This document shows, in pieces, positions 1 through 30,835 of a DNA stretch of 34,902 bases (the first letter of the stretch is position 1; every line of letters begins with the position of its first letter). A model generated the notes under the pieces. It worked only from the letters and a program-made list of their open reading frames with translations, was not told the DNA's origin and searched no databases. Source of the DNA: Nitrospirae bacterium RIFCSPHIGHO2_01_FULL_66_17 (GTDB lineage Bacteria; Nitrospirota; Nitrospiria; 2-01-FULL-66-17); NCBI GenBank assembly GCA_001803875.1, contig MHEO01000032.1:1-34902 (forward strand), given 5' to 3'. A program made the translations under genes and the position numbers.

Positions 1-639
1 CAACCGGAGCCGGGTCGTCCGCCACCCGATGTCGGTCACGTACCCCTCCTCCCCGCTCTCGAGGCGGATGAAGTGCCCCACCCGGATCGACCGCTCCATC
101 AGGATGTGAATCCCCGCGAACAGGTTGGAGAGCGTGTCCTGCAGGGCGAGCGCGACCGCGAGCCCGCCGACGCCCAGCGCGGTGAGCAGGGGCGCGATGG
201 ACACGCCGAGCGTGCCCAGCAGGATCAGGACGCCGAGGCTGATCACGAAGCCCTTGAGGACGACGTAGGTCAGCCCGGTGGCGGCCAGGGGCAGGTCGGC
301 GCGCCTGGCGGCGAAGCGCAGCAGGTGTTCCGCGGCGTTGGCCGCGACGAACGTGAACGAGAGGATCACCAGGATGTGCAGGAGCGAGAACGACGCCTGG
401 ATGATCCGCGGCGGGAGGACCGACGTCCCGATGGCGAGGTACAGGCCGAGCGCGATTGCCCAGGTGATCGACGGCCCCCGGATGACGCTCAGCAGGATGT
501 CGTCGATCTCGGTCTCGGTCTTCGCGGCCCAGCGGCGCAGGAGTGAGAGCAGCAGGCGCCGCGCGAACAGCGCCAGGCCGGCCGCCGCGACGAAGATTGC
601 CGAGGAGGACACGAGCTGGCGAAGCAGGGTGGGATCCAT
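1..639 (-). CDS. Mechanosensitive ion channel, MscS family (partial; C-terminal part lies beyond window start)
   Basis: Absent from the ORF track because it runs off the window edge. The reverse complement from ATG (639..637) reads MDPTLLRQLVSSSAIFVAAAGLALF...TALGVGGLAVALALQDTLSNLFAGIHILMERSIRVGHFIRLESGEEGYVTDIGWRTTRLR. It has TM helices followed by the MscS pore-helix/beta-domain signature. The frame is open to position 1. Confidence 0.8.
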   Translation of the reverse strand, partial: MDPTLLRQLVSSSAIFVAAAGLALFARRLLLSLLRRWAAKTETEIDDILLSVIRGPSITWAIALGLYLAIGTSVLPPRIIQASFSLLHILVILSFTFVAANAAEHLLRFAARRADLPLAATGLTYVVLKGFVISLGVLILLGTLGVSIAPLLTALGVGGLAVALALQDTLSNLFAGIHILMERSIRVGHFIRLESGEEGYVTDIGWRTTRLRL

Positions 640-697
640 GCAGGTCTCCGGCTAACGTATCCCGCGCGGCGGAGTCAAACCGCGCGCCCCCACCCAT

Positions 698-718
698 CCC
701 CCCTTTACAAAAGGGGGG
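698..718 (-). terminator. Perfect 9-bp hairpin (CCCCCCTTT-ACA-AAAGGGGGG) downstream of vapC; possible terminator
   Basis: Inverted repeat read directly from the sequence, lying between the vapC stop (815) and the mscS start (639). No clear U-tract on the minus strand, so weak. Confidence 0.3.
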
Positions 719-814
719 CGAGGGGTGATTCTCTGTTCAGGGCGAAAGGGCGGCTGTGTCCAAGAGAGCTTCTTTGCCCTTGTGCGAGCCGTACACAAGA
801 GCTCGTGGCCCAAT

Positions 815-1243
815 TCATGGGCCGATGACCGCCAACCCCGAAATATGGTTGGCAATCCGATGGAATTCCCCCAGATTGCTCGTGACGACTGCGGCGCCGA
901 TCCGGCGCGCCGTCAGTGCAATCAGGATATCGTTCATGAGCCCCAGCCGGTCGCCCCGGACCGTACCATAGAGAGCACGAAAGACGACGCCGGCTTGATC
1001 AAAAGCCCAGACGTCCGGCGCAATGACGCGGCTCGGGGGAAACGCGTCCTTGAGTCGATCGACAGCTTTTTTTCGTCTTGGCGTATCAGCGCCCACATCG
1101 AGCTCTAAGACAACGACTGAGGAGAGAAAGCGGATTGTTTTCCCGACCGGGCCGATCACCCAGTTCGCGTGGAGCCCCGCGCGCAGGTAGTCGATAAAGA
1201 CGTTCGTGTCGAGAACGACTTTGGCCCCTACTGGTAAGGCCAC
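815..1243 (-). CDS. vapC: PIN-domain ribonuclease toxin, VapC family
   Basis: 142 aa with GTG start. N-terminal VVLDTNVFIDYL motif and C-terminal acidic and T/S residues (LMNDILIALTA...VVTSN) typical of PIN. Overlaps the upstream antitoxin gene by 16 nt. Confidence 0.85.
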   Translation of the reverse strand: MALPVGAKVVLDTNVFIDYLRAGLHANWVIGPVGKTIRFLSSVVVLELDVGADTPRRKKAVDRLKDAFPPSRVIAPDVWAFDQAGVVFRALYGTVRGDRLGLMNDILIALTARRIGAAVVTSNLGEFHRIANHISGLAVIGP

Positions 1244-4410: not shown

Positions 4411-4432
4411 AATCAAACTAAAGGACGATTGT
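4411..4432 (+). promoter_or_regulatory. Conserved upstream motif AATCAAACTAAAGGACGATTGT (copy 1) in the AT-rich leader of cytochrome paralog 1
   Basis: Near-identical 22-mer at 7881..7902 upstream of paralog 2 (2 mismatches). The surrounding upstream sequence is otherwise not alignable by eye. Confidence 0.4.
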
Positions 4433-4623
4433 TTTCTCCATCCGTTGGGTTTATAAGTACCAACGCTGGAAAAGAAGTCACGTGCCACTCGTCTTCCGGC
4501 TCCATGCGGCAGGAGGTCCTCCCCGCGAACCAGAATCGTTAGGATAGAGCGACCGAACAGAACATCCTGAAAACCGGCGTGCAGGCATCCTTGGATCCTT
4601 TGCTGAACATGAAGGAGGAGCGT

Positions 4624-7600
4624 ATGCAAGGCACTCGTTGGTGGTTGGGAAAAGTTTTCGGTTTGACGCTCGTACTCGGTGTCGTGGGCGCGTCATCCGC
4701 GCTGGCTCGTCACGGCGAAGAGGGCTTTCTCGCGAACCGTATCCCCGAACCGGCGCCGTACGTCGTGAGTGAAACGACGTCGGCCGGGGGCGCGTTCGGC
4801 GCCCCGCACACCGGCGCGCCGTTTGAGGACCTCTGGACCAGCGAAAACGACGTCGGTGGCTGCGATGGGTGCCACACCGGGCTCTGGAACCAGTGGAACG
4901 GCGCGATGATGTCGAACGCCTGGCGGGATCCGGGGTGGCGAGGGGCCTTTTTGCTCGTGGCGCGCCTGACTTCGACGGATGGAAATTGCGATATTCCCAA
5001 CCCGCCGGACGGCACAGCGCGGGCCAGCATCAACCCATTTGCGCATCCGACGGCGTGCCAGAGCACGTTTAACAGCGGGACGACCAACGTGACCTACACC
5101 GGGTCGGGGTCGTTGATGGATGATTTTTGCTCGCGGTGCCACATGCCCACGAACTACATCGATGCCGTCACCACGGTCACGAGCGATGCGCCGTCGGGGC
5201 AGGAGCACGGCCGCATCAGCCCCTTGTATTACCCGACGTCGGTGGGCACGGCGCAGGCCACGGACCCCGCCAATGGGCTGCTCACGCTCGAATCGTTCGG
5301 TGAACGGACCTATGTCGATGGGGTGAGTCGAGTGGTCAATAGTAACAGTGGGAAGATCGGGATCATCTGCGAGGTGTGCCATACCAACGTCGAGACGCGC
5401 TACACGCCGTACCACCTCTACAACAAGTCGGGTACGGAATACACCCCGGCGCCTCAGAACACGGGGCGATTCAACCAAGGCTTGGCGGCGGCGCAGCAGG
5501 ACATGCTGACGGTGCCGAACGCGGCGAGCGGCAACCTGGGCTATGCGGTGGCCGCGGGGGCGTTTCGGCTCTCGCCCCACGCGCTCAACCTGCCGGAGCG
5601 GTTCGGGCCCTTGTCGTGGAACGATCCGTGCCTGATCCTGCCGGGTAGTTGTGTGGGCGGACAAGTGTTGGATTCGTACGTGAGCGACGTCTTCACCGGC
5701 GGCACCCGGACGACCAATGTCTACTTTACCCAGGCGAACCCGCCTGGCGCGCACGACACGTTCTACCAGGTCAAGTTCGAGCGGGCCGAGTTCTGCGCGT
5801 CCTGCCACGACGTGACGAACCCGATGACGATCAAGAACGCCGCGGGTTTCTGGGTCGGTGGGTTCCCGATCGAGCGGACGTACACGGAGTGGAGGAACAG
5901 CCGGTACGCCGATCGTCCGGGCAACACCCACTACGATCAGAACTACAAGCGGGACTGCCAGACCTGTCATATGCAGCAGAGCTACGGCGAGCCGGGGACC
6001 GCGCTCACCTTGTACACGGTCAACGGTGGCGTGACGCCGGATGCGCCGATTTTGGAGCCGTCGTGCGATCAGATTACGCACAACCCGGGCTATTCGCACC
6101 ACTTCGTTGGCGGCAACGGCTACATGACGCGGTTGATCGGTGCGGATGTGGATGGTGGGGGCAACGTGCAACCGTACCCGGAGCTCTTGCATACGAGCTT
6201 CTCGTCGGCGGACGCGAACAGCCGGTACCACTATGCCCGGTACGATACCGCAGGCGGGCGGTCGGGACCGGTCGCGACGCAGCACGAGCGCTTCTCGTGG
6301 GATCGTATGCGGAACGTCTTGACGATGACACTCTCCGCTCCCACTGGCACCGTCGCCCCGGGAAGCACGGCGGCGCTGACGATCACCGTCAAAAACGAGG
6401 GCTCGGGGCACGACTTCCCGACCGGTTTCCCCGAGGGCCGTGCCGCCTGGGTGTTGGTCAAGGCGTGGGACACCCGGAATACCGCCGTGACCACCGACGA
6501 CGTCGAATTGACGATTCGTGACAGCCAGAAACCCGCGGGCCAGCAGGATTCGCTGGGCGTGGGCTATCTGACCAGCGCGTCGATGAAACCGGATCCGACC
6601 TACCCGGCGACTTGTCCGGATGCCGAGGGAGTCGGCGGAGGCTGGAAGATTCCAGAGGGATCGATCGATCCGTGGGCTGTGACGTTCAAAGCGATGGCGA
6701 CGGTGGACAAGGTCTGTCCGACGCTCGACCTGCCGTATGCCACGCCCGTGAACCTGGTCGTGAACGCGAGCAACATGCCGACGGACGCCAATGGGGTCGT
6801 GATCGATCGGAACAACCCCACGGGCATCCCCCGGTATTCCGATACCGACGGCGATGGGGACTCGTTCGACGACTCGTTCCTCCGTGATACCCGGTTGCAA
6901 CCGTGCCGGGGCGCGACTTGCAACAACCCCGGGAGCGGCGTAACCGTCACCCGGTATTCGGTCGTGGTGCCGGCGACGGCGGTGGGGCCGATTGCGGTGA
7001 CCTCGGTGGTCTATTATCAGGCGTTCGAGGGCATCGTGGCCAAGAAGTTTCTGGGGAACCTGGCCGACACCGACGACGATGCCCCGCCCACGTTGGAGCC
7101 CTGCGTGCTGAAGGGGCCCTGCGGCCGGGCGGCGAACAACACGGAGTACCGCAACGCGCTCAAATTCGACCCCGTTGCGGTCGAGGGAGCGCCCCCGATG
7201 CCGATGGAAGTACGAAACGCCGTGATCAGGGTGACGGGGACGACCGACACGATCGCTCCGAGGGTGATCATCAACAATTGCAAACCGCCTCGGAAGAATA
7301 ACGTCTGTGTCGGGACCAACCTGACGGCGCCCATCCCGGCCAACGGGCATTGGTCACCGTCGCCCTACGGAGGTCAGAGCGGAAATTTCGCGACCGAGAG
7401 TTATGGCGAACTGAACGTCGCGCACACCCGGATCGTGAAGGTCTCGTTCAGCGAGCCGGTGCAGGAGTGCGACAACGTCGCGGGCCTCGTCAACTGCGGG
7501 CCGCTCTCGGCCAGCACGTATTATCTGACCGATAACGCCGGTGCGGCGGTGACGTTCCTGCAGGACCAGATTGACGATCGGACGTGGGGCCTGTTCCCGT

Positions 7601-7758
7601 ACGTGAGCACCGACTCGGTGTTTCTGGGTGGCGGCGGCTATGTGATACACGTGGCGCCGACGCGCAGCGGTCGGGCGATCAAGGACTCTGCAGGTCTCAC
7701 GCTGGTGGCCGGGCCCGCAACGGGTGGGGAGTACACGTTCGGGTTTAAGGCCCAGTAG
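4624..7758 (+). CDS. Secreted pentaheme c-type cytochrome with large heme-free C-terminal region (paralog 1)
   Basis: SD AAGGAGGA sits 5 nt before ATG 4624. Signal peptide WWLGKVFGLTLVLGVVGASSALA|RHGEE. Five CxxCH motifs: CDGCH 4861-4875, CSRCH 5128-5142, CEVCH 5368-5382, CASCH 5794-5808, CQTCH 5956-5970. Many paired Cys occur downstream. C-terminal Ig-like segment (RIVKVSFSEPV). Followed by a strong terminator. Confidence 0.85.
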   Translation: MQGTRWWLGKVFGLTLVLGVVGASSALARHGEEGFLANRIPEPAPYVVSETTSAGGAFGAPHTGAPFEDLWTSENDVGGCDGCHTGLWNQWNGAMMSNAWRDPGWRGAFLLVARLTSTDGNCDIPNPPDGTARASINPFAHPTACQSTFNSGTTNVTYTGSGSLMDDFCSRCHMPTNYIDAVTTVTSDAPSGQEHGRISPLYYPTSVGTAQATDPANGLLTLESFGERTYVDGVSRVVNSNSGKIGIICEVCHTNVETRYTPYHLYNKSGTEYTPAPQNTGRFNQGLAAAQQDMLTVPNAASGNLGYAVAAGAFRLSPHALNLPERFGPLSWNDPCLILPGSCVGGQVLDSYVSDVFTGGTRTTNVYFTQANPPGAHDTFYQVKFERAEFCASCHDVTNPMTIKNAAGFWVGGFPIERTYTEWRNSRYADRPGNTHYDQNYKRDCQTCHMQQSYGEPGTALTLYTVNGGVTPDAPILEPSCDQITHNPGYSHHFVGGNGYMTRLIGADVDGGGNVQPYPELLHTSFSSADANSRYHYARYDTAGGRSGPVATQHERFSWDRMRNVLTMTLSAPTGTVAPGSTAALTITVKNEGSGHDFPTGFPEGRAAWVLVKAWDTRNTAVTTDDVELTIRDSQKPAGQQDSLGVGYLTSASMKPDPTYPATCPDAEGVGGGWKIPEGSIDPWAVTFKAMATVDKVCPTLDLPYATPVNLVVNASNMPTDANGVVIDRNNPTGIPRYSDTDGDGDSFDDSFLRDTRLQPCRGATCNNPGSGVTVTRYSVVVPATAVGPIAVTSVVYYQAFEGIVAKKFLGNLADTDDDAPPTLEPCVLKGPCGRAANNTEYRNALKFDPVAVEGAPPMPMEVRNAVIRVTGTTDTIAPRVIINNCKPPRKNNVCVGTNLTAPIPANGHWSPSPYGGQSGNFATESYGELNVAHTRIVKVSFSEPVQECDNVAGLVNCGPLSASTYYLTDNAGAAVTFLQDQIDDRTWGLFPYVSTDSVFLGGGGYVIHVAPTRSGRAIKDSAGLTLVAGPATGGEYTFGFKAQ

Positions 7759-7778
7759 AATTCGCTGGTGTGCTGGAA

Positions 7779-7820
7779 AAGAGGGGAGGCCCTTCTAAAT
7801 GGGCCTCCCCTCTTTGTGTA
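7779..7820 (+). terminator. Rho-independent terminator of cytochrome paralog 1
   Basis: AAGAGGGGAGGCCC-TTCTAAAT-GGGCCTCCCCTCTT followed by TGTGT. 14-bp GC-rich stem. Confidence 0.8.
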
Positions 7821-7880
7821 GGGTGTCCTGATAGCAAAAGGTTAAAATACTTCCACCTTTTCCCCTTCACGGCGCTGAAA

Positions 7881-7902
7881 AATCAAACCAAAGGACAATT
7901 GT
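7881..7902 (+). promoter_or_regulatory. Conserved upstream motif AATCAAACCAAAGGACAATTGT (copy 2)
   Basis: Matches 4411..4432. Lies 141 nt upstream of the paralog 2 start codon. Confidence 0.4.
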
Positions 7903-8021
7903 GCAGGCGGTTAGATCTCCTGTATCGTACGCGACAACATTGGCTCGGTTAGTAGCCAACAGTGCCTGGTTTGTTGGCCTATCGTTTTGATTGGGCGGTG
8001 ACCACGGTGAAGGAGGATGGT

Positions 8022-11000
8022 ATGAAGAACGGGAATCTCAGGTGGAAGGGTGTGGTGCTAGGGCTGGCGACGCTCCTCAGCGTTGCCGGCCTCGTGTCCA
8101 CGGCGTTCGCCCGGCACGGGGAGGAGAACCTCCTCACGAATCGTATCCCCGAGCCGGCGCCGTACGTGGTGAGCGAAACGACATCGGCTGGCGGAGCGTT
8201 CGGCGCCCCGCACACCGGTGTGCCGTTTGAGCCCCTCTGGACGACCACCAACAATTCGGGGAGCTGTGATGGGTGCCACACCGGGCTCTGGAACCAGTGG
8301 AATGGCGCCATGATGTCGAACGCCTGGCGCGATCCGGGGTGGCGTGGGGCGTTCTTGCTCGTGGCGCGTCTGACGTCGACCGACGGTGATTGCGACATTC
8401 CCAACCCACCGGACGGGACGGCCAAGGCCCAAATCAACCCATTCGGGATTGCCGGTTGTCAGAGCCGGTTCAATGTGACGCCCGGTACCACGACTCCGTT
8501 CCCGGGTGTGACGCCAGCGCTGTACAGTCAAAGCGGGTCGCTGATGGACGACTTCTGCTCGCGGTGCCACATGCCGACCAATTACATCGACGCGACGACG
8601 AACGTTTACGCCGATAATCAGAGCCCGTACGGAGGCGGGACCTCCACCCAGGAGCACGGCCGCATCAGCCCGTCGTATGACCCGACCGCAGTGGGCACGG
8701 CGCAGGCGACGGACCCGGCCAACGGGCTGCTCACGCTGGAGTCTTTCGGGTCGCGCACGTATGTTGACGGCGTGAGCCGCGTGGTCAACAGCAACAGCGG
8801 CAAGGCCGGGATCACCTGCGAGGTCTGCCACACCAATGTGGATTCTCGGTACACTCCCTATCATCTCTATGGTAAATCGGGGACGGAGTACTACCCGGCG
8901 CCCCAGAACACGGGGCGCTATAACCAGGGCTTGACGCCGGCGCAGCAGGACATGCTGACGGTGCCGGACGCGGCGAGCGGCAACCTGGGCTACGCGGTGG
9001 CCGCGGGAGCGTTTCGGCTCTCGCCCCACGCGCTCAACTTCCCTGAACGGTTCGGTCCCTTGTCGTGGAACGATCCGTGCCTGATCCTGCCTGGGAGCTG
9101 CGTGGGCGGGCAAGTGTTGGACTCGTACGTGAGCGACGTGTTCACGGGCGGCACCCGGACGACCAACGTGTACTTTACCCAGGCGAGTCCGCCGGGTCAG
9201 CACGACACGTACTACCAGGTCAAGTTCGAGCGGGCCGAGTTCTGCGCGTCTTGCCACGACGTGACGAATCCGATGACGATCAAGAACCAGTTCGGCTACT
9301 GGACCGGCGGGTTCCCGATCGAGCGGACATACACCGAGTGGAAGAATAGCCGGTACTCCGATCGGCCGGGCAATGCCTATTACGATGCCAATTACAAGCG
9401 GGACTGCGAAACCTGTCATATGCAGCAGAGCTATGGCGAGCCGGGGACCGCGCTTACGTTATACACGGTCGCCGGCAGCGTCGTCACGCCGGATGCGCCG
9501 CTTCTGGAGCCGTCCTGCGATCGGATCACGCACAACCCGGGCTATTCGCACCACTTCGTGGGCGGGAACGGCTACATGACGCGGCTGATCGGCGCGGATA
9601 TCGACGGCGGGGGCACGGTGCAGCCGTACCCGGAGCTCTTGCACACGAGCTTCTCGTCGGCGGATGCCAACAGCCGGTACCACTACGCCCGGTACGATAC
9701 GGTGGGCACGGTAACGGGCGGCACCACCCAGCACGAACGTTTTGCGTGGGATCGCCTGCGTAATGCGGTGACGATGTCGGTGACCGCGCCGGCCTCGGTC
9801 GTGAGACCGGCCACGGAGACGCTGGCCGCGCTGAACGTGACGGTGAAGAACGAAGGCTCGGGGCACAACTTCCCAACCGGCTTCCCGGAGGGCCGAGCGG
9901 CGTGGGTGGCGGTGAAAGCGTGGGATACCAAGAACACGGCCGCGGTCACGGATGACGTGGAGCTGCAGATTCAGGACAGCGCCAACGGGAATCGCCGATC
10001 GCTCGGGGTGGGATATCTGACCGCCGCTTCGATCAAGCCGGACCCGTCGTATCCGTCGACCTGCCCGGATACGGAAGGGGTGACGGGCGGCTGGAAGCTC
10101 CCGGAGGGCGCGATCGATCCGTACGCCTATACGTTCCGGGCGATGGCGACGCTGGACAAGATCTGTCCCACGCTGGATCTGCCCTACGCGACGCCGGTGA
10201 ACCTGGTGGTCAACGCGAACAACATGCCGACGGATGCCGCCGGGGCGGTGATCGATCGGAACAACCCGAACGGCATTCCTCGGTATACGGACACGAATGC
10301 CAACGGGGATGTCTTCGACAACGCGTTCCTGAGGGATACGCGGCTGCAGCCGTGCCGCAACGTCGGATGCACGAACGCGGGCGCGATGGTCAACCTTACA
10401 CGGTATTCGGTCGTGGTGCCGTCGACGATCGTCGGGCCGATCGCGGTCAGTTCGGTCGTCTACTACCAGTCCTTCGAGGGCATCGTGGCCAAGAAGTTCC
10501 TCGGCAACCTCGCCAACACGGACGACGATACCCCTCCGACGCTGGAGCCCTGCGTTCTGAAGGGGCCCTGCGATCGAGTCGCGACCAATGCCGCGTATCG
10601 GCAGGCTCTGCTGTTCGATCCGGTGGTGGTCGAGGGCGCGCCCCCGGTGCCTTCCGAGGTGCGCAACGCGGTGATCCAGGTGACGGCCACGACGGATAAT
10701 GTGGCGCCCCGCGTAATCATCAACAATTGCAAGCCGCCTCGGAAGGGTGGAACGTGCCCGGGGACCAATCTGACCGCCCCGATCCCGGCGAACAAGCACT
10801 GGTCGCCCTCGCCATATGGTGGAACGACGGGCAACTACGCGACGGAAAGCTACGGCGAACTGAGTGTGGCGCACACCCGGATCGTAAAGGTGTCGTTCAG
10901 CGAGCCGGTGCAGGAGTGCGACAATGTCGCAGGGTTGGTCAACTGCGGGCCTCTGTCGGGCAACACGTATTATCTTACCGACAGTGGCGGTGCAGCGCTG

Positions 11001-11207
11001 ACGTTCCTCCAGGATCAGATCGACGACACCACGTGGGGGTTGTTCCCCTACGTGGGGACCGATTCGGCCTTTGTGGGTGGAGGCGGCCACATCATACACA
11101 TTGCGCCGATCCGCAACAGTCGGGCTATCAAGGACTATGCGGGCAACACGCTGTTTGCGGGCCCCGCAACCGGAGGAGAGTACACCTTCGGATTCAAAGC
11201 GCAGTAA
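8022..11207 (+). CDS. Secreted pentaheme c-type cytochrome with large heme-free C-terminal region (paralog 2)
   Basis: SD GAAGGAGGA before ATG 8022. Signal peptide ending TAFA|RHGEE. The same five CxxCH motifs (CDGCH, CSRCH, CEVCH, CASCH, CETCH) at positions equivalent to paralog 1. Collinear with paralog 1 over the full length and ends in the identical AGPATGGEYTFGFKAQ. Confidence 0.85.
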   Translation: MKNGNLRWKGVVLGLATLLSVAGLVSTAFARHGEENLLTNRIPEPAPYVVSETTSAGGAFGAPHTGVPFEPLWTTTNNSGSCDGCHTGLWNQWNGAMMSNAWRDPGWRGAFLLVARLTSTDGDCDIPNPPDGTAKAQINPFGIAGCQSRFNVTPGTTTPFPGVTPALYSQSGSLMDDFCSRCHMPTNYIDATTNVYADNQSPYGGGTSTQEHGRISPSYDPTAVGTAQATDPANGLLTLESFGSRTYVDGVSRVVNSNSGKAGITCEVCHTNVDSRYTPYHLYGKSGTEYYPAPQNTGRYNQGLTPAQQDMLTVPDAASGNLGYAVAAGAFRLSPHALNFPERFGPLSWNDPCLILPGSCVGGQVLDSYVSDVFTGGTRTTNVYFTQASPPGQHDTYYQVKFERAEFCASCHDVTNPMTIKNQFGYWTGGFPIERTYTEWKNSRYSDRPGNAYYDANYKRDCETCHMQQSYGEPGTALTLYTVAGSVVTPDAPLLEPSCDRITHNPGYSHHFVGGNGYMTRLIGADIDGGGTVQPYPELLHTSFSSADANSRYHYARYDTVGTVTGGTTQHERFAWDRLRNAVTMSVTAPASVVRPATETLAALNVTVKNEGSGHNFPTGFPEGRAAWVAVKAWDTKNTAAVTDDVELQIQDSANGNRRSLGVGYLTAASIKPDPSYPSTCPDTEGVTGGWKLPEGAIDPYAYTFRAMATLDKICPTLDLPYATPVNLVVNANNMPTDAAGAVIDRNNPNGIPRYTDTNANGDVFDNAFLRDTRLQPCRNVGCTNAGAMVNLTRYSVVVPSTIVGPIAVSSVVYYQSFEGIVAKKFLGNLANTDDDTPPTLEPCVLKGPCDRVATNAAYRQALLFDPVVVEGAPPVPSEVRNAVIQVTATTDNVAPRVIINNCKPPRKGGTCPGTNLTAPIPANKHWSPSPYGGTTGNYATESYGELSVAHTRIVKVSFSEPVQECDNVAGLVNCGPLSGNTYYLTDSGGAALTFLQDQIDDTTWGLFPYVGTDSAFVGGGGHIIHIAPIRNSRAIKDYAGNTLFAGPATGGEYTFGFKAQ

Positions 11208-11228
11208 GTCGTGACGTAGCTCCATATG

Positions 11229-11264
11229 GAGGGGAGGCGGTTATCGCGCCTCCCCTCTTTTTTC
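11229..11264 (+). terminator. Rho-independent terminator of cytochrome paralog 2
   Basis: GAGGGGAGGCG-GTTATCG-CGCCTCCCCTC followed by TTTTTT. The stem sequence is related to the terminator at 7779. Confidence 0.85.
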
Positions 11265-11372: not shown

Positions 11373-13703
11373 GTGAATCCTCTACTCGCCTTGATGCGGA
11401 ACCCCGGAGCGCTCGCTCTCGGGGTCTTGTGGCTCAGCCTGTCCTCTTCTCCGGCCATGGCCAAGCCCGCCACCCTCGCGTACATCGCGAACGCCGGGAA
11501 CAACCACGTCCAGATCCTCGACGTGGAGACCGGTCAGACGGTGAACAAGCTGTACACGGGCGCCGCCCCGTGGCGGTTGATCGAATCGCCGGACGAGAAG
11601 CGCCTGCTCGTCCAGCACTGGTATTCCGAGACCACGGCGGTGGTCAACCTGGCCACGAACGAGATCGAAGCGGTGCTGCCGACGCGCGGTCCCGGCGTGT
11701 TCACGCCCAAGGGCGACAAGTTCTGGAGCTACTCGTGGCCGGGATCCTTCCTGCAAGGCTACGACGGCAAGACTTTCAAGGCGACCGACCAGCGGCAGAC
11801 CGAGGACCGCAGCGTCTACGATCTCCTGTTCTGGGGGAAAGACCGGCTGTATCTCGGCCAGTACGACCCGATCAGCAAGGTGGGACGCCAGGTGTTCGAC
11901 TTCGTCATGGCCGCGAAGCTCGATGATCCCAAGCACGTGTCGTCCTCGGTCAAAACCGGCACCAGCCCGGCCAAGCTCGTGCTCGACCCGACCGGCGAGT
12001 TTCTCTTGACCGCCAACGTGGACGACCGGGACGTCACAATGATCAACACGAACGGCGCCACCGCCCGCGTCACGCTCGGGGCGGGACCGCGGGATATTCT
12101 GTTCACACAGGGCGGCAAGCGGATGATCGTCATCTGCTGGAAGCCCGGCGCGCGCCGGAGCGAGGTCTTTACCCTCAGCAGCAACTTCAAGGCCCGACCA
12201 TGGCCCGAGGTGAAGGCCGACAAAACGGCCGAAGTCGAGGGCGGGCTCGTCGCCGCGGCGGTTGGGCCCGGCGGGCGGGTGTTTTACGCCCTCGACCGGC
12301 CGGGCAAGCGCCTGGTGACGCTCGACGCCGAGACGTTGAAGGAGTTGAGCAGCGTTCCCGTCGGCGATGAGCCGACGACGTTCGTGATCCGGCAAGTCTC
12401 GCAGCGGGAGCGCAACCGCCTCGCGCGCAAGACCGAGGCGCGGACGCGGCTCGAAGCGGTGATCGCGACCATGAAGTCCCACGGCGCCCCCTATGCCGAC
12501 GTCGCGTTCACCGAGACGATGACGAGCGAGGTGCCGGACGAAGCGAAAGCCGACGGGAAGGGCGAGGCAGAGGCGAAGCCGGCGACCAAGACCGTGACGT
12601 CGACGCTCAAGACGACGATCAATCTCCCCGACTCTGTTCGACACGAGTTTGCCGATGGTGGCGTGCGCTTGGCCCAAGGTGGCCGCGCGATCTCGATTTC
12701 GAGGGATGGGCGATTCCAGAATACCCCGCGGCAGGACCTGGTGTATCTCTTGTATGCGCTGTACGGTCTTCCAACCGAGGAGGTGGTCCGTCATCTCGCC
12801 GGGGATGTGCCGGGGAGTCCCTATCTGCGGAACGGGATCGCGGTCGACATCGTGCGAACCGTCGAGGAAGAGGGCCACAGGTACCACGCGATCGGCGCGA
12901 TGGGCAGCCACGAAACGGTGTCGCAACTCTGGGTGAGTGCCGAGACAGGATTCCCAGTCAGTGTGGTGGAACAGTTTCCGGTGATGCGGCCGAAAAACCC
13001 GCACGCCCAGGACGAAGGGTTCCGTGGTCTCACCGAGACGAGGGTCACGTATCAGAAGGTGGATGGCGGGTACGTGATCCCGGTCAAGCTCAGCCGGTAT
13101 CTGGATGGAAAAGAGGTCGGGTGGGTCGGCGTGTCCGACATCCGGTTCAATCAACATCCGCCGGCCGAGCGATTCGACCTGGCCCGGCTCGGTGGGGTGC
13201 TCAAGGCCGTGCCCAAGAAGGCCGAGCCGGCCAAGGTCTCGGCCCATGAAGGCCCGGGCCTCGCCGTGGCGAGCCAGGGCAACGAGCACGTGGGGACGCC
13301 CTTCGACGAGCACGGGCCCTACAACAGCAACCCTCCGACCTCCGGGCCCCACACGGCGTACCTGACGGAGTGGGGGGTGCACGCCATTCCCATCCCGCCG
13401 GAAACGCAGGTACACAATCTTGAAGACGGCGGCGTGCTGGTGCAATACTCGTGTCCGACCCCGTGCCCCGACCTGGTCAAGCAACTGGAGGCGGCGGCGA
13501 CCAAGCACGACCGCGTGGTTGTGGCCCCGTATCCGTTGGTGGAGTCCCGCATCGTGTTGACGGCGTGGGAGCGGATCGAGACGCTCAATGAGTTCGACGA
13601 CCACCGGATCGGCGCGTTCATCGAGGCATACGCGGGTAAGGACCACCATCCCGCCAAGGGCGAGGGTTCGTCGGACGCCTCTCGGGAGAAGGAGCAAGAA
13701 TGA
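11373..13703 (+). CDS. Secreted fusion protein: YVTN-type beta-propeller, LolA/RseB-like middle domain, C-terminal DUF3105
   Basis: Start placed at GTG 11373 (SD AAAGGAG 5 nt upstream), because the track start at 11226 overlaps the terminator. Signal peptide ...LWLSLSSSPAMA|KP. YVTN-like repeats (LAYIANAGNNHVQILDVETGQ; LVLDPTGEFLLTANVDDRDVTMIN). The middle part ends in a LolA-like pattern (VTYQKVDGGYVIPVKL...VSDIRFNQHPPAERFDL). The C-terminus matches the DUF3105 pattern (SGPHTAY...VHNLEDGGVLVQYSCP...VVAPYP). Confidence 0.7.
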   Translation: MNPLLALMRNPGALALGVLWLSLSSSPAMAKPATLAYIANAGNNHVQILDVETGQTVNKLYTGAAPWRLIESPDEKRLLVQHWYSETTAVVNLATNEIEAVLPTRGPGVFTPKGDKFWSYSWPGSFLQGYDGKTFKATDQRQTEDRSVYDLLFWGKDRLYLGQYDPISKVGRQVFDFVMAAKLDDPKHVSSSVKTGTSPAKLVLDPTGEFLLTANVDDRDVTMINTNGATARVTLGAGPRDILFTQGGKRMIVICWKPGARRSEVFTLSSNFKARPWPEVKADKTAEVEGGLVAAAVGPGGRVFYALDRPGKRLVTLDAETLKELSSVPVGDEPTTFVIRQVSQRERNRLARKTEARTRLEAVIATMKSHGAPYADVAFTETMTSEVPDEAKADGKGEAEAKPATKTVTSTLKTTINLPDSVRHEFADGGVRLAQGGRAISISRDGRFQNTPRQDLVYLLYALYGLPTEEVVRHLAGDVPGSPYLRNGIAVDIVRTVEEEGHRYHAIGAMGSHETVSQLWVSAETGFPVSVVEQFPVMRPKNPHAQDEGFRGLTETRVTYQKVDGGYVIPVKLSRYLDGKEVGWVGVSDIRFNQHPPAERFDLARLGGVLKAVPKKAEPAKVSAHEGPGLAVASQGNEHVGTPFDEHGPYNSNPPTSGPHTAYLTEWGVHAIPIPPETQVHNLEDGGVLVQYSCPTPCPDLVKQLEAAATKHDRVVVAPYPLVESRIVLTAWERIETLNEFDDHRIGAFIEAYAGKDHHPAKGEGSSDASREKEQE

Positions 13704-14383
13704 CGTCGCGTGGTGCCATGATCGGAGCCCTGGTCCTGGGGCTCATCCTTGTCGCCGCTTGCCAGAAAGACGGAGGCGGCGGGTTACCTGAGCCGGTGGG
13801 GGAGAGCGGGATTCCTATCGCGAGCCCCTCGCCGGATAACCAACTCCCGCCGAATCATCCGGCCATTAATAATCCGCCCGGTTCGACGTCGGACCGCGCG
13901 ACCGATCGCCCGCTGCCGGCGGGGACGCGGAATCCCATGGAGGACGTCATCGCCTTCAAGGCCCGCCTCGACAAGAACCCGAAGGACCTAGAGGCGCTCA
14001 TCTCGCTGGGCAACGCTAATATGATGATTTCGCGCTTCGACGCGGCGCAGGATCTGTACACGCGGGCGCTGGCGATCAACCCCAAGGATCTCGACGTGCG
14101 GACGAACCTGGCGATCGCGTACCAATACGGGGGTAAGCCGGATCGGGCGTTCACCGAACTGAACAAGAACCTCGGCTACGACCCCAAGCACGATCCCACG
14201 ATGTACAATCTCGGCTTCCTCTACTACTACGACAAGAAGGATTCCGCCGCGGCGCTGGACATCTGGAAGCGGTGGCTCGCGCTGTATCCCAACGCGCCGG
14301 CGGCCGGGGACGTGAGCAAGCAGATCGCGAAGATCGAAGCGGAGAAGGGGTCCCAGAAGTCGGCCGGCAAACCGGCATCGTGA
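13700..14383 (+). CDS. TPR-repeat lipoprotein
   Basis: ATGA start/stop overlap with the upstream gene. Lipobox LILVAAC. TPR repeats (ALISLGNANMMISRFDAAQDLYTRALAINPKD...). Paralog of 21129..21743. Confidence 0.8.
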   Translation: MTSRGAMIGALVLGLILVAACQKDGGGGLPEPVGESGIPIASPSPDNQLPPNHPAINNPPGSTSDRATDRPLPAGTRNPMEDVIAFKARLDKNPKDLEALISLGNANMMISRFDAAQDLYTRALAINPKDLDVRTNLAIAYQYGGKPDRAFTELNKNLGYDPKHDPTMYNLGFLYYYDKKDSAAALDIWKRWLALYPNAPAAGDVSKQIAKIEAEKGSQKSAGKPAS

Positions 14384-14387: not shown

Positions 14388-15203
14388 CTACGACACGGAT
14401 TTCGCGCAGCGAAAGCCGAAATCGGGAAATTTGGCGGTCGGCGCCATCGGGAACCGGTAGGCCGCGCGATAGAACTCGGGGAGCGCGTAGTGGCCGACGC
14501 CTCCCCATCCCCCGCCCTTGAGTACCTTGAACGTTCGGCCGAACGGCGCGAACTCGTACGTGCTGTTCGGATGCGGCAGATACCAATCCGACGTCCATTC
14601 CCAGGCGTTGCCGGCCATGTCGTCCACCCCGTAGGGGCTTCGACCCTCCGGGAAGCTCCCGACCTCCACGAGTCCGCCGCGACCGGCGTCGCCGGTGTTG
14701 GCCTTGTGGCCGTCGTAGTCGTTGCCCCACGGGAATTCGCGGCCGTCGGCGCCCCGCGCCGCTTTTTCCCACTCGGCCTCGGTGGGCAGGCGTGTGCCCC
14801 GCCACTCGCAGTAGCGCTGCGCGTCGTGCCAATTGACGCTGGTCACGGGCAACCGGTGCGTCCCGGACGGCGGGCGGCCGTCGACCCAGTGTTTCGGCGA
14901 GGGCCAGCCGGTCGCCGCGACAAACGTGGCGTATGCTCCCTGAGTGACCTCGTGGCGGTCGATCAGAAAGGCGGGGAGCGTGATCGTCTGTCGGGGGTGC
15001 TCGTCCAGATAGAGGGGCTTGGCGAAGCCGAACTCGTGGGTCTTGCCCTCGGCGTCGACGCGATCGCTGCCCATCAGGAACTCGCCGGCCGGGATGGGGA
15101 TCATGTCCTTGTCCTGGGCGCGCAGCGTCCAGATGGCGAGCCATGTTCCCAAACCGACCACCGCGAGGACGGCCGCGGCGAGCAGGGCACGGCGTTTCGT
15201 CAT
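14388..15203 (-). CDS. FGE-sulfatase (SUMF1/DUF323) fold protein, membrane-anchored, lacking the FGE catalytic Cys pair
   Basis: Start moved to ATG 15203 (MTKRRALLAAAVLAVVGLGTWLAIW), because the track N-terminus to 15362 runs through repeat copy A. Contains DRHEVTQGAY, RLPTEAEWEKAARGADGREFPWGN, AGNAWEWTSDWY and FGFRCA. Confidence 0.85.
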   Translation of the reverse strand: MTKRRALLAAAVLAVVGLGTWLAIWTLRAQDKDMIPIPAGEFLMGSDRVDAEGKTHEFGFAKPLYLDEHPRQTITLPAFLIDRHEVTQGAYATFVAATGWPSPKHWVDGRPPSGTHRLPVTSVNWHDAQRYCEWRGTRLPTEAEWEKAARGADGREFPWGNDYDGHKANTGDAGRGGLVEVGSFPEGRSPYGVDDMAGNAWEWTSDWYLPHPNSTYEFAPFGRTFKVLKGGGWGGVGHYALPEFYRAAYRFPMAPTAKFPDFGFRCAKSVS

Positions 15204-15213: not shown

Positions 15214-15380
15214 CTAGGAGTATGTCCGAGTGTGGGGGCGTTGGAGCCTGTTCTTGCCCCGCAAAGCGGGCCGCGAAACGAGCGCCCGACTTCCCGGCGC
15301 GAGGCTTCGCAAGGTTCGCAGGAATGCGCCGGATGCACAGCGACAACGCAGCAGATGACCACTCATGGACAGGCTCCTAG
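15214..15380 (-). repeat. Palindromic MITE/REP-like intergenic element, copy A (inverted relative to copies C-E)
   Basis: The reverse complement aligns with copies C/D/E: CTAGGAGCCTGTCCATGAgTGGTCATCTGctGCGTTGTCGCT...GAACAGGCTCCAACGCCC...ACTCGGACAtaCTCCTAG. It fills the gap between the two FGE-like genes. Confidence 0.85.
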
Positions 15381-16177
15381 CGGGCGCACCGGAACCCGAT
15401 ATCGCGGAACCGCCGCTCCGGCGGCTGGTAGAAGCGATAGGCGGCGCGGTAAAAGTGCGGGACGGTGTAGTGGCCGGCCGATCCGCCCCAACTGCTGTTG
15501 CGCACGACCCTGAACCGCTCCCCGAACGCGGGACTCGTGTACGTCGATCCGGGGTAGGGCTGATACCAGTCGGCGACCCACTCGGACACGTTGCCGGCCA
15601 TGTCCTCCACGCCGTAGGGGCTCTTGCCCTCGGGGAAGCTGCCCACCGCAGCCAGCCCCGTGCTGCCGATGTTGCCCTTTTTTTCATCGAACGCGTTGCC
15701 CCACGGGTATTCGCGCCCGTCGGTTCCGCGCGCCGCCTTTTCCCACTCGGCCTCGGTCGGCAATCGCTTCCCGGCCCATCGGCAGAACCGATCGGCCTCG
15801 AACCACGTGATCCCCGTTACGGGCCATCGCCCCTGATCGGCCGGGAAGCGTCCGTCGGGCCAGGTGGGCGGGGCGGCCGCGCGGGTGGCGTCGACGAATT
15901 GCCGGTACTGGTCGTTGGTGGTCTCGTACACGTCGATCTGATAGGTCGGCAGGGTGACGGTGCGCTGCGGGTGCTCGTCCAGAAACCACGGCTTCGCGGT
16001 GCCGAACTCGACCCCCTGTTGGGCGGTGTCGGTCTGATCGCTCCCCATGATGAACTCACCCTGGGGGATGGTGACCATCTGTCCGGGGGAAGGAGCCGTT
16101 CCCCGCGCCCCCCCGGACAAGGGATCGCAGCCGACGATGACGATCAGCGCCAGCGGGAGGACCCGGCGCGGATTCAA
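15377..16177 (-). CDS. FGE-sulfatase fold lipoprotein, lacking the FGE catalytic Cys pair
   Basis: Lipobox LIVIVGC. Contains YETTNDQYRQF, RLPTEAEWEKAARGTDGREYPWGN, AGNVSEWVADWY and IGFRCAR. The stop codon TAG (15379..15377) lies inside the terminal CTAG of repeat copy A. Confidence 0.85.
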   Translation of the reverse strand: MNPRRVLPLALIVIVGCDPLSGGARGTAPSPGQMVTIPQGEFIMGSDQTDTAQQGVEFGTAKPWFLDEHPQRTVTLPTYQIDVYETTNDQYRQFVDATRAAAPPTWPDGRFPADQGRWPVTGITWFEADRFCRWAGKRLPTEAEWEKAARGTDGREYPWGNAFDEKKGNIGSTGLAAVGSFPEGKSPYGVEDMAGNVSEWVADWYQPYPGSTYTSPAFGERFRVVRNSSWGGSAGHYTVPHFYRAAYRFYQPPERRFRDIGFRCAR

Positions 16178-17331
16178 CGCGAAAGGCCCAATCGGTGGAA
16201 GAGGGAGCGCAGCGGCGTCCGGTCGGGGTCGGCGAACCGGCTAACGCCCACCCGCGTGCCGAACCACTTGTTGCCCTCGTCGTCCACGCCGATCGAGTAG
16301 ACGAAGTTGTCGATCAGGCCGTCGCGCGTCGTGTAGGTGCGCCAGCGGGTTCCGTCGAACCAACTGACGCCGCCATCGGTGCCAGCCCACAGAACCCCGT
16401 GGTGATCGACCGCCTGGGAGAAGACGAAGTTGCCTCCGAGCCCGTCGGCTTTGGAGTAGGTCGTCCACGAAGAGCCGTCGAATCGGGAAATCCCGCCGCC
16501 CCAGGTGCCGAACCACTTGTGGTCGCGCCGATCGACCGCGGCCGAGATCACGTAATTGGGGTTGCTCGCGGTGGCCTGTTTCGACGGGTCGATGTGGTGG
16601 GGATTGCCGAACGTGTAGTCCGGGTTCTTGACGACTTGTTCGGTCTCAAGACCGAGGCCGTCGGCGTGGGTGTAGCTCTTCCACGTCGAGCCGTCGAAGC
16701 GCGTGACCCCGCCTTCGGTGCCGAACCACATCACGTTTGCGCGATCGATGGCGATCGCGTACACCCACTTGTCGACCAGGCCCTCGTCCACGGAGTAGGT
16801 CGTAAATCCACGGCCGTCGAACAGGCTCACGCCCTTCCACGTCGCGACCCACATCCGGCCGCGGCGGTCGAAGGCGACGTCGTAGACCCAGAGGTCCCCG
16901 AGGCCCCGGCCGGGCGCGTACGCTGTCCAGGTATTCCGATAATCGGCGGGGGAACCCCATCCGTACGGGGAATACGTCGTCCAGCGGGAGCCGTCGAACT
17001 TGGCCAGGCCGCCCCCGTAGGTGCCGACCCATTTGTCGCCGTCGCGGTCGACCTCGATTGTGTAGACGCCGGTGCTGAGGAGCTGACCGCCGGTGTTCGC
17101 CGGCGTGTAGAGATCGAAGTCCCGCTCGGTGCGGAGGTCGTGGCGCATCACACCGCCGAAGAGCCCGAGCCACACGTCATGGCCCTCGAACGCGATGCTC
17201 ATCACGCGGGCGCGGGTGTTGATGGTCTGCCAGCGGGAGGAGGGGGGCTCGTCGGCGGCGAGCAGACGCAGCGTTGGAACCAGGGCCAGAGCGGCCACCA
17301 TGAGGACGAGCCACGGACGCGGAACGGTCAT
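16174..17331 (-). CDS. Secreted standalone beta-propeller of the two-component-regulator propeller (Reg_prop) type
   Basis: Signal peptide LVLMVAALALVPTLRLLAA|DEP. At least 7 repeats of W(F/V)GTxGG(V/I)(S/T)xFDG..W..Y. 4-nt overlap with the downstream FGE-like gene. No kinase or Y_Y_Y domain attached. Confidence 0.75.
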   Translation of the reverse strand: MTVPRPWLVLMVAALALVPTLRLLAADEPPSSRWQTINTRARVMSIAFEGHDVWLGLFGGVMRHDLRTERDFDLYTPANTGGQLLSTGVYTIEVDRDGDKWVGTYGGGLAKFDGSRWTTYSPYGWGSPADYRNTWTAYAPGRGLGDLWVYDVAFDRRGRMWVATWKGVSLFDGRGFTTYSVDEGLVDKWVYAIAIDRANVMWFGTEGGVTRFDGSTWKSYTHADGLGLETEQVVKNPDYTFGNPHHIDPSKQATASNPNYVISAAVDRRDHKWFGTWGGGISRFDGSSWTTYSKADGLGGNFVFSQAVDHHGVLWAGTDGGVSWFDGTRWRTYTTRDGLIDNFVYSIGVDDEGNKWFGTRVGVSRFADPDRTPLRSLFHRLGLSR

Positions 17332-17394
17332 CGAACGGTCCTGAAAAACGCCTCACTTTAGCAGAAACCCGACGAATGCCTCAAGGCAATCGCC

Positions 17395-17590
17395 CTCGGA
17401 GTGTATTCGAGTGGTGGGGTGGTAGAGCCTGTTCAGGAATGCGCCAGATGCAAGGCGGAGCGAGGAATCCACCCGGAGCGTACTGGGAGGCTCCTGGAGG
17501 TACGAGGCATTCCCGGGGGATTGCGGTCGTACGTGAGGAGGGATTCCGAAGCGACAACGCCGCAGATGGCCATTCATGGACAGGCTCTAG
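17395..17590 (-). repeat. Palindromic MITE/REP-like element, copy B (longest copy, internal expansion)
   Basis: Carries the same GGAGCCTGTYC-type termini and core (…GAATGGCCATCTGCGGCGTTGTCGCTTCGGAATCCCTCCTCACGTACG… on the reverse complement), with about 30 extra internal nt. Lies in the divergent promoter region between the propeller and porin genes. Confidence 0.75.
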
Positions 17591-18799: not shown

Positions 18800-19290
18800 C
18801 GTTTGCAGTCGTCCGGCGAGTTGATGGCCGCCGAACCGGGGCCGCAGGGTGGCCGGCGGTGGTCGTGCTGTGCCTGCTGGCGGCGCTGGCGGGCGCGGGG
18901 GGCGCGTCCGCGGTGCGGGCCGAAGACCTCGCGGTGATCGTCAACGCCGGCGGTTCCCTGACCTCGCTCACGCTGCCGGATGTCCGCGCGCTGTATCTCG
19001 GCGAGCGACAGTTCGTCGGCCCCGAGCCGGTCGTGGTGCTCCACCTGCCGGAGGGCGACGTGAAGGCGGCGTTTCTGTCCCGTGCTGTCGGTCGGACGCT
19101 CAAGGAGTACAAGCTCCATTGGCTGCAGCGCGTCTTCCAGGAGGGCGCCACCCTGCCCACGGTGGTGGCGGGACCCGAAGCGATGGTCGGCGTGGTGGCG
19201 ACCCGCCGCAACAGCGTGGGATACGTCCCGGCCTCGCTGGTCCGGGATACGCCGGACGTGAAGATCCTCTTCGTGGTGCCCTCGCCGTGA
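18781..19290 (+). CDS. Small periplasmic PstS/PBP-like-2 type substrate-binding domain protein
   Basis: ATG 18781 overlaps the porin stop. Signal peptide ...LCLLAALAGAGGASAVRA|ED. DLAVIVNAGGSLTSLTLPDVRALYLGE...VGYVPASLV resembles the phosphate-binding-protein-like fold. The track start at 18040 is read-through inside the porin gene. Confidence 0.6.
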   Translation: MGIRLLAFAVVRRVDGRRTGAAGWPAVVVLCLLAALAGAGGASAVRAEDLAVIVNAGGSLTSLTLPDVRALYLGERQFVGPEPVVVLHLPEGDVKAAFLSRAVGRTLKEYKLHWLQRVFQEGATLPTVVAGPEAMVGVVATRRNSVGYVPASLVRDTPDVKILFVVPSP

Positions 19291-21128: not shown

Positions 21129-21743
21129 TTGGCTAGAATCCCCGCCGTGCATCGGTTTCCCCTCAGTCCAAAGCCGTGGTGGTGTCTCGGCCTCGCCCTT
21201 CTCGTCGGCGCCGTCGTCGCGTGTGAAAAAAAAGACAAGCCGCCGGTGTCCGATGCGCCGCCCCCCGCCGCGTCATCGGGAGCGCCGGCCGATCCGAAGA
21301 TGGCGAAGGTCATCGAGGAGATCATCGCTTACAAGGCGAGGGTCGACAAGGATCCGAACGACGTCGAGGCGCTCGCCGCGATGGGCAACGCGAACATGTC
21401 GTTGGGACGCTTCGATCACGCCAAGGACTGGTACGAGCGCGCGCTCAAGATCGATCCGAACCGCACCGCCACCCGGATGGACCTCGCCGTGGCGTTGCGC
21501 TACCTCGGCAAGCCGGACGAGGCGATCGCCGAGCTCAAGCGCGTGCTGGCCAAGGAGCCCAAGAACGCCGGGGCGCTGTACAACCTCGGGGTGGTTCTGC
21601 TGGAGGACAAGCAAGACGCCAAGGGAGCGATCGCGCGGTGGGAGACGCTGATGAAGGCGCACCCCGATCATCCCCAGACGGCCCAGCTCCGGCAAATGGT
21701 CGAGCAGATCAAGCATCCGACCCCGTCCCCGCCCGGCGGGTGA
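21129..21743 (+). CDS. TPR-repeat lipoprotein (paralog of 13700..14383)
   Basis: Lipobox LLVGAVVAC. TPR repeats ALAAMGNANMSLGRFDHAKDWYERALKIDPN..., collinear with the other TPR lipoprotein. Start uncertain (TTG 21129 or downstream GTG). Confidence 0.75.
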   Translation: MARIPAVHRFPLSPKPWWCLGLALLVGAVVACEKKDKPPVSDAPPPAASSGAPADPKMAKVIEEIIAYKARVDKDPNDVEALAAMGNANMSLGRFDHAKDWYERALKIDPNRTATRMDLAVALRYLGKPDEAIAELKRVLAKEPKNAGALYNLGVVLLEDKQDAKGAIARWETLMKAHPDHPQTAQLRQMVEQIKHPTPSPPGG

Positions 21744-21784: not shown

Positions 21785-21868
21785 GCCGGCGTGGCGGAAT
21801 AGGCAGACGCAAGGGACTTAAAATCCCTCGGGGGCAACCCCATCCCGGTTCGACCCCGGGCGCCGGCA
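21785..21868 (+). tRNA. tRNA-Leu (anticodon UAA)
   Basis: Manual cloverleaf. Acceptor GCCGGCG/CGCCGGC plus discriminator A. Anticodon arm AGGGA-CTTAAAA-TCCCT (anticodon TAA). Long variable arm GGGG-CAA-CCCC (class II). T arm CCCGG-TTCGACC-CCGGG. CCA is not fully encoded. Confidence 0.85.
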
Positions 21869-21992: not shown

Positions 21993-22033
21993 GCGGGTGA
22001 GTCCAACGCAGGGGTGCCCCGGTGATCGTGACG

Positions 22034-30827: not shown

Positions 30828-30835
30828 GAGCGCCG

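Follow-up and report, generated by a model that had tools for sequence, protein, structure and literature searches.

Tandem cytochrome genes of an uncultured Nitrospirota bacterium encode expanded relatives of PHC pentaheme cytochromes and putative periplasmic redox enzymes

A 34,902-nt stretch of the genome of Nitrospirae bacterium RIFCSPHIGHO2_01_FULL_66_17 (contig MHEO01000032.1, positions 1 to 34,902; hereafter the window) carries two adjacent genes, paralogs A and B, for secreted pentaheme cytochromes of about 1,050 residues. Structural and profile comparisons indicate that residues ~29-870 of these proteins are a remote, heavily expanded homolog of the pentaheme-cap and immunoglobulin (Ig)-like-stem fold of the 'PHC' family, in which cytochrome c552, ExtKL and larger relatives have been grouped (PMC11976967). 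Judged by its gene numbers (GSU2937/2936), ExtKL is the Geobacter sulfurreducens selenoprotein MccSep. We are somewhat inclined to read the new proteins as PHC-derived periplasmic redox enzymes or terminal modules that would carry out catalysis at a remodelled heme 2, be fed by a quinol module and act on a substrate other than polysulfide.

An AlphaFold2 (AF2) model built from the family alignment is confident (pLDDT 87, pTM 0.89), and its best PDB match in Foldseek is the low-potential pentaheme c552 of Thermochromatium tepidum (5ZE8; E 6.3e-9, probability 1.0, target-normalised TM 0.60). The family profile also contacts 5ZE8 in HMMER at heme 1, heme 3, heme 5 and a loop of the Ig-like domain, where 'IRNL-QPHAMPTGAPF-RN' of 5ZE8 pairs with 'VKNEGSGHDFPTGFPEGR' of the family. 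For comparison with MccSep, whose sequence is that of PDB 9WT8, about 70 full-length selenocysteine-type MccSep-like genes were pulled from metagenome contigs with a degenerate GHSIPDGUP pattern. Aligned by hhalign to 64 proteins of this type, the family gave E 5e-5 at a probability of 67%, with a default-confidence core of 37 columns (a reversed-template control gave E 0.48), and the five CxxCH sites were paired in the same order, from 58/118/170/221/259 in the MccSep-like proteins to 80/169/249/391/445. We place the family among the PHC proteins because of the Foldseek match to 5ZE8 and the retention of all five heme sites in order. A sequence-only reading of the window had been unable to place this architecture, and the structure prediction and Foldseek search that it proposed have now done so.

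The distant homolog of c552 and MccSep/ExtKL is made up of the heme domain plus the initial ~300 residues of what that reading called a heme-free half. Beta strands begin at residue 566 of the model. Relative to PHC proteins, insertions totalling ~250 residues enlarge the heme domain, a single one of ~130 residues enlarges the stem, and a Big_5-like Ig domain has been appended at the end. The stem contains an invariant loop, N591 to W609 (NEGSGHDFPTGFPEGRAAW), whose motif NEGSGH(D/N)FPTGFPEGR (GxGHxFPTGFPEGR) aligns as the equivalent of the MccSep selenocysteine loop; GHxFP(T/S)GFP is present in all 120 of the matches listed. The motif had correctly been recognised as conserved but was assigned to a C-terminal half apart from the heme unit. 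Its homology to the active-site loop of MccSep shows that it belongs to the catalytic unit and not to a separate C-terminal module. The conserved cysteine pairs described for the same half do exist, but only C664/C698 and C827/C833 are family-wide and the rest are specific to the Nitrospirota subgroup, so that a 'disulfide-rich' C-terminal half is largely a subgroup feature. Nor does the heme spacing, noted earlier as sparser than in electron-conduit multihemes, stand out among catalytic multiheme proteins: at about 100 residues per heme it is similar to that of enzymes such as NrfA.

MccSep is a polysulfide reductase of cap-plus-stem architecture, a homotetramer with a substrate channel, in which Sec325, within the sequence ...NHAGHSIPDGUPTPNR, juts from the Ig-like stem over heme 2, itself ligated by His and Cys239; Arg83 and Lys372 assist catalysis, and almost no activity is left in the variants U325A and U325C (PMC13510729). 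We mapped the conserved residues of the MccSep family onto the pentaheme family by profile alignment, which is of low confidence around Cys239 and Lys372. The five CxxCH sites are retained and are invariant in a 70-sequence family alignment. Tyr194, Tyr250, Met264 and His319 are likewise retained as Tyr273, Tyr428, Met450 and His596, the substrate-binding Arg83 aligns with an invariant Arg114, and the basic character of Lys120, inside the heme-2 motif, is kept by Arg171 (96%). Other residues are lost or changed. Sec325 is replaced by Phe602 in 70/70 aligned and 120/120 listed sequences, Cys239 falls with modest alignment confidence on Ile403 (86% Ile, the rest mostly Val) beside Lys404 (89%), Lys372 falls in a gap, and His74, which is His in c552 too, is Met96 (99% Met). 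Between hemes 4 and 5, no cysteine is conserved in the family alignment. With the catalytic residues replaced in this way, the chemistry is not the selenium- and sulfur-based polysulfide reduction of MccSep, and an MccSep-type polysulfide reductase was accordingly rejected.

An NrfA nitrite reductase was also rejected: a motif scan found no CxxCK in either paralog, and neither Pfam nor NCBIfam gave a Cytochrom_C552/NrfA match at E<=1. Membership of the MtrC/OmcA-type conduits found no support either: PF22113 scored 20 bits against a cutoff of 30, over only ~70 residues near hemes 4-5, and no conserved porin gene is found nearby.

The family shares with MccSep the pentaheme cap and Ig-like stem, the loop GH-x-(I/F)-P-(D/T)-G-X-P, a basic residue within the heme-2 CxxCH, the Tyr and Met equivalents and a periplasmic location (predicted here). 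Besides the substitutions of Sec325, Cys239 and His74 and the unalignable Lys372, it differs in being about 600 residues longer and in having genes for alternative complex III (ACIII) or a DUF3105 protein as neighbours, whereas the neighbourhood of MccSep/ExtKL in Geobacter is the ext porin-cytochrome cluster. NrfA resembles the family in having five hemes in ~450-500 residues, a supply of electrons from the quinol pool, which here would be analogous, and a dedicated TPR/CcmI-like protein in its operon, the TPR protein that accompanies NrfA being NrfG; unlike NrfA, the family lacks CxxCK, has no NrfA sequence match and is assigned to another fold. The best structural match, c552, likewise carries an Ig-like domain behind five CxxCH sites that keep the same order, and it shares motifs at heme 1 (C..CH...W.GSM), heme 5 (CQTCHM) and the loop (H.(M/F)PTG.P). 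However, it has 385-435 residues compared with ~1,050, and has His in place of Met96 and Ala in place of Phe602. The function of T. tepidum c552 is itself unknown, ExtKL is encoded in the context of the ext porin-cytochrome cluster, and a catalytic function has been proposed for large PHC proteins (lPHC: GSU2801; cable-bacteria lPHCtX), in which the cytochrome domain is enlarged and/or extra domains are fused (PMC11976967). PtdA is also among the large PHC-type members (bioRxiv 10.1101/2023.11.21.568154). By their descriptions, lPHC and PtdA resemble the present proteins in the enlargement of the cytochrome domain and/or the fusion of domains to it, and are set apart by truncated-hemoglobin fusions and a porin-cluster context, neither of which occurs here.

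We surveyed the genomic context of the cytochrome gene at 82 non-redundant related loci. At 42 of them, where the cytochrome is 42-47% identical to paralog A, actABCDEF lies directly upstream on the same strand, and the gap from the actF stop to the cytochrome start has a median of -1 nt (42/82 loci; Acidobacteriota, Myxococcota). A divergent ACIII is found at nine loci (45-47% identity to paralog A), and only a NarI-like cytochrome b with a diheme cytochrome c at five (45-46%). The synteny comparison suggested by the earlier reading found a gene for a beta-propeller protein ending in a DUF3105 domain adjacent at 12 of the 82 loci (48-63%). The other 14 loci (44-68%), mostly truncated contigs, show none of these contexts. 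ACIII- or NarI-linked and DUF3105-linked contexts never co-occur at the 82 loci and, being mutually exclusive, define two subfamilies. There is no act or NarI-like gene in the 35-kb window, which belongs to the DUF3105-linked subfamily, and no porin, outer-membrane or secretion gene is conserved beside the cytochrome gene at the surveyed loci.

ACIII normally passes electrons from quinol to cytochrome c (PMC5928083). The translational coupling to actF therefore argues for the cytochrome as the dedicated redox partner of ACIII, most simply as its electron acceptor, that is, a terminal reductase. This role may extend to the subfamily of the window, because all key residues are invariant across both subfamilies.

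Homology, residue substitutions, selection pattern and synteny are observations; from the substitutions and contexts we infer how the hemes are ligated, which way electrons flow and what is excluded as a substrate, as follows. Electrons would be taken up by the heme chain and used in a reaction at heme 2, whose distal pocket would have been rebuilt to be more hydrophobic, with Ile403 and Lys404 replacing the ligating Cys and Phe602 replacing Sec. Arg114 and the basic residue inside the heme-2 CxxCH are kept. One bis-His heme has probably become a His/Met heme through Met96, which would raise its potential. In Acidobacteriota and Myxococcota the protein would act as a terminal periplasmic oxidoreductase coupled to actF of ACIII or to NarI-like cytochrome b plus diheme cytochrome c, and in the subfamily of the window its dedicated partners would be the secreted propeller-DUF3105 protein and a CcmH-type TPR lipoprotein. 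The original suggestion of a redox enzyme rather than a simple carrier is plausible in the light of the invariant active-site-type loop and the tight operon links. A more specific proposal, that the protein is an unrecognised terminal respiratory enzyme with an Ile/Phe-capped heme 2 and, in Acidobacteriota and Myxococcota, the dedicated acceptor of ACIII, effectively its seventh component, is one that we advance only tentatively.

Several points weigh against an enzymatic role of this kind. The alignment at Cys239 and Lys372 is of low confidence, and the hhalign match to MccSep-like proteins has the modest probability and short high-confidence core given above. Ligands and pocket are read from the alignment only, in a family known from sequences and a predicted model. 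The link to ACIII comes from a subfamily that is 42-47% identical to the proteins of the window, and no quinol module of the window's own subfamily lies within 35 kb. Seven extra conserved His could six-coordinate all five hemes, which fits a pure carrier, and Ig domains at the C-terminus typify proteins with a surface or adhesive function.

The protein could be a pure electron-transfer component, either a wire in the periplasm or at the surface or a polymer resembling a nanowire, which would pass on electrons received from ACIII or another donor to an acceptor that is insoluble or outside the cell and would have no catalysis of its own. A relative of the PHC fold is found in AvECN, a cytochrome nanowire of archaea (PMC11976967), there are enough conserved His and Met for five six-coordinate hemes, the two C-terminal Ig-like domains resemble surface-protein modules, and one locus adjoins feoAB and DHOR genes. 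We nevertheless consider a wire unlikely, given that no porin, outer-membrane or secretion gene is conserved beside the cytochrome gene, that an invariant MccSep-type loop and an invariant Arg114 represent more constraint than a wire needs, and that five hemes in ~520 residues is a low density for a conduit.

Electrons might instead flow in the opposite direction, from an enzyme oxidising reduced nitrogen, sulfur or metal species into a chain of cytochrome c and caa3 oxidase. The His-to-Met switch at residue 96, which suggests a high-potential heme, would suit such an enzyme, as would the caa3 oxidase genes that one ACIII-linked locus also bears and the mostly aerobic soil lineages of the hosts. 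However, a gene coupled to actF fits an acceptor better, given the direction reported for ACIII, the NarI-like and diheme-c modules resemble quinol dehydrogenases, and nothing in the window points to a donor substrate; we doubt that the protein works in this way. Finally, an orthodox MccSep-type polysulfide/selenite reductase or NrfA-type nitrite reductase too divergent to recognise is very improbable: the heme order and Ig-loop homology to MccSep, and the superposition of the PHC five-heme arrangement on core hemes of multiheme enzymes including nitrite reductase (PMC13510729), are set against an essential Sec/Cys325 that is Phe in every listed member, a Cys239 that is Ile or Val, the lack of CxxCK and of any NrfA Pfam match even at E<=1, and ACIII-level electrons that would be too oxidising for polysulfide reduction.

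The two genes of the window bear the marks of an old and stable duplication. Re-calling the open reading frames (ORFs) recovered both paralogs as first described, collinear and 79.5% identical in protein sequence across their full length. Both proteins have the same architecture, exactly five CxxCH sites, 25 cysteines and a Sec-pathway signal peptide that ends in ALA or AFA, respectively, followed by RHGEE. A Shine-Dalgarno sequence, AAGGAGG, stands 5-6 nt ahead of each ATG. The 22-nt motif AATCAAACYAAAGGACRATTGT occurs in the window only at the two upstream positions listed in Table 1 (chance expectation 0) and is found, with 2 to 5 substitutions, ahead of both paralogs in a related Nitrospirota metagenome-assembled genome (MAG; L001); its presence there indicates a conserved cis element, likely a promoter or regulator site. 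Each gene is followed by a stable hairpin, of which that after paralog B passed a simple terminator scan and that after paralog A did not. The motif, Shine-Dalgarno sequence and hairpin shared by each copy support the earlier proposal that the entire transcription unit was duplicated in tandem. A search of Rfam found no RNA families in the window.

Divergence between the paralogs at synonymous sites (dS) is 0.86 and at nonsynonymous sites (dN) 0.13, a dN/dS of 0.15 (Nei-Gojobori), and every 60-codon window has a ratio between 0.02 and 0.24. Decay of one copy is rejected on this ratio. Indels and low identity are concentrated in a few patches (paralog A residues ~141-196, 540-600 and 637-638), the same ones from which it had been proposed that both copies are maintained while loops diverge. 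In a neighbour-joining tree the A and B orthologs form separate clades, so the duplication predates several Nitrospiria lineages and both copies have been retained; one related contig bears one A-type and one B-type copy. Thus, the two copies are anciently duplicated, independently transcribed and maintained by purifying selection. Between 5437-6155 and 8886-9605 of the window (A residues ~272-510, mid heme domain), dS drops to 0.28-0.52, compared with 0.8-3.7 elsewhere, a tract that suggests past gene conversion or unusually strong codon constraint.

Sequence searches bore out the initial impression that no characterised family matches the proteins over their full length. Pfam and NCBIfam gave nothing above threshold for either paralog, only sub-threshold heme-motif matches, a phmmer search of PDB sequences with the whole protein and two segments found no relevant match, and a literature search found no publication on the ~1,050-residue pentaheme family. 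All 573 matches in a word-indexed protein search are named 'hypothetical' or 'Ig-like domain-containing'; the nearest named relative is from a Nitrospiria bacterium (85% identity). A scan of one genome per species yielded 142 encoding stretches, of which 79 loci were kept for analysis, every one from a MAG or an uncultured candidate taxon. Their hosts are mainly Acidobacteriota, then Myxococcota, Gammaproteobacteria, Nitrospirota and Candidatus Entotheonella, and clustering at 50% identity leaves only about four full-length clusters. Shorter 'remote relatives' from a representative search proved to be fragments of the same family and were discarded, and the porin-cytochrome clusters for electron transfer described from peat (bioRxiv 10.64898/2026.05.27.727921) represent a separate system. 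Two 'putative pentaheme cytochromes' are described in the NXR cluster of Nitrospira moscoviensis (PMC12342949); no Nitrospira genome is among the 79 kept loci, and, no formal comparison having been made, we do not equate those proteins with the family.

The heme-1 site varies in part of the family. Six acidobacterial members (P0065, P0070, P0073, P0078, P0097 and P0100) have C-G-C-H or C-S-C-H, in which a single residue instead of two separates the cysteines, and canonical sequences at the remaining four sites; in P0117 the site is CRNCP, without His. These could be either a very unusual attachment motif or a loss of heme 1 in a sub-clade.

The partners of the cytochromes in the window are listed in Table 1. 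For the propeller-DUF3105 protein, the mechanical ORF starts at an ATG (11226) inside the paralog B terminator hairpin, and homologs place the start near 11373, which results in a normal signal peptide and is probably correct. The protein of ~780 residues is modelled by AF2 at pLDDT 89, and its matches in Foldseek are dominated by generic propellers. It has only 62 homologs, many on contigs size-matched to cytochrome-bearing ones. Its DUF3105 domain, on which we found no study in the literature, contains an invariant C-P-x-x-C-P motif (13448-13465; residues 692-697, counted from 11373) at a strand-to-helix junction of a predicted beta-alpha-beta-alpha-beta-beta-alpha unit. The motif is reminiscent of the CxxxC copper or thiol site of Sco/thioredoxin proteins; Pfam searches with the isolated DUF3105 domain and the middle domain gave no link to Sco or thioredoxin.

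The TPR lipoprotein, which matches the TPR_CcmH_CycH model, is possibly a maturation chaperone. All proteins of the cluster bear signal peptides or lipoboxes, and the layout, with one or two cytochrome genes, the DUF3105 protein and the TPR protein, and two FGE genes and a Reg_prop gene on the opposite strand, is that of Nitrospirota and Gammaproteobacteria.

Table 1. Features of the cytochrome cluster in the window, with one NarI-like gene from the context survey
Feature	Position	Strand	Remarks
22-nt upstream element, copy A, AATCAAACTAAAGGACGATTGT	4411..4432	+	likely promoter or regulator site
Paralog A	4624..7758	+	ATG start, 1044 aa
Signal peptide, paralog A	aa 1-28		
CxxCH sites, paralog A	residues 80, 169, 249, 391, 445		exactly five
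Expanded PHC-type pentaheme domain (predicted)	paralog A aa ~29-555		AF2 model, alignments
Ig-like stem (predicted)	paralog A aa ~560-870		AF2 model, alignments
Invariant loop N591..W609	6394..6450	+	homologous to MccSep Sec325 loop; Phe602 at the Sec position
Big_5/CopC-like Ig domain	paralog A aa ~925-1044		last ~120 residues
Hairpin GAGGGGAGGC after paralog A	7781..7815	+	-35.1 kcal/mol, z-score -5.8; intrinsic-terminator-like
22-nt upstream element, copy B	7881..7902	+	conserved cis element
Paralog B	8022..11207	+	ATG start, 1061 aa; architecture as paralog A
CxxCH sites, paralog B	residues 82, 179, 266, 408, 462		exactly five
Hairpin GAGGGGAGGC after paralog B	11228..11258	+	-28.8 kcal/mol, z-score -3.9; intrinsic terminator
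Propeller-DUF3105 partner	11373..13703	+	secreted 7-bladed YVTN beta-propeller, middle beta domain, C-terminal DUF3105
TPR lipoprotein	13700..14383	+	CcmH/CycH (apocytochrome-chaperone) type
FGE-sulfatase-family protein 1	14388..15203	-	membrane-anchored or secreted; kept beside cluster in L001
FGE-sulfatase-family protein 2	15377..16177	-	lipoprotein
Reg_prop beta-propeller protein	16174..17331	-	secreted; kept in L001, L007, L008
Dispersed repeat, five copies	15214-15381, 17394-17587, 25031-25212, 27036-27219, 30669-30829	both	mostly intergenic
NarI-like gene	L205 7615-8829	-	also L064 and ~40 other loci, ~7.5 kb upstream of cytochrome

The NarI-like (Nitrate_red_gam) cytochrome b carried by ACIII operons of the family lies just upstream of ActA or is fused to it. 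In the database entry P0125, NarI and the pentaheme protein are joined in one chain; this fusion could be a frameshift artefact, since the two genes overlap by 1 nt in L003. The dispersed repeat of the window (~130-190 nt, copies 63-98% similar) may be a mobile element of miniature size or of REP-like type, and two of its copies flank the FGE and Reg_prop genes of the cluster. A second TPR lipoprotein, 39% identical to that of the cluster, is encoded in the region of 21129-21743 and 22022-22657, adjoining a tRNA-Leu(TAA) gene (21785-21870) and an ECF sigma factor gene. Further genes downstream of the cluster (18849-21077, 32089-33378 and 33628-34854) encode a HAMP-GAF-GGDEF diguanylate cyclase, a HAMP-HD-GYP-type phosphodiesterase and a weak integrase-core (rve) ORF.

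The fold family to which these cytochromes belong is known and has one characterised member, so they are not categorically new, but they form a large and distinct variant: about 2.3 times the length of known members, with the catalytic pair replaced, a heme-ligand switch that we read from the alignment, new domains and two tight genomic partnerships. The family illustrates a re-tooling of the MccSep/c552 scaffold, in which the selenium/sulfur pair has been replaced, a heme ligand apparently changed and domains added. It is unstudied and found only in uncultured organisms. The window also ties DUF3105 to a defined redox partner. If the tentative proposal of a terminal respiratory enzyme and dedicated acceptor of ACIII is correct, annotation has missed a widespread respiratory reaction of uncultured bacteria in soil and groundwater, whose substrate would be gaseous or of high potential (NO, O2 or a peroxide, for example); the Nitrospirota version would then have taken on a propeller-DUF3105 protein as its partner instead. 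Where the cytochrome gene is translationally coupled to ACIII, as it is in many dominant soil lineages, the identity of the substrate would define a missing respiratory branch.

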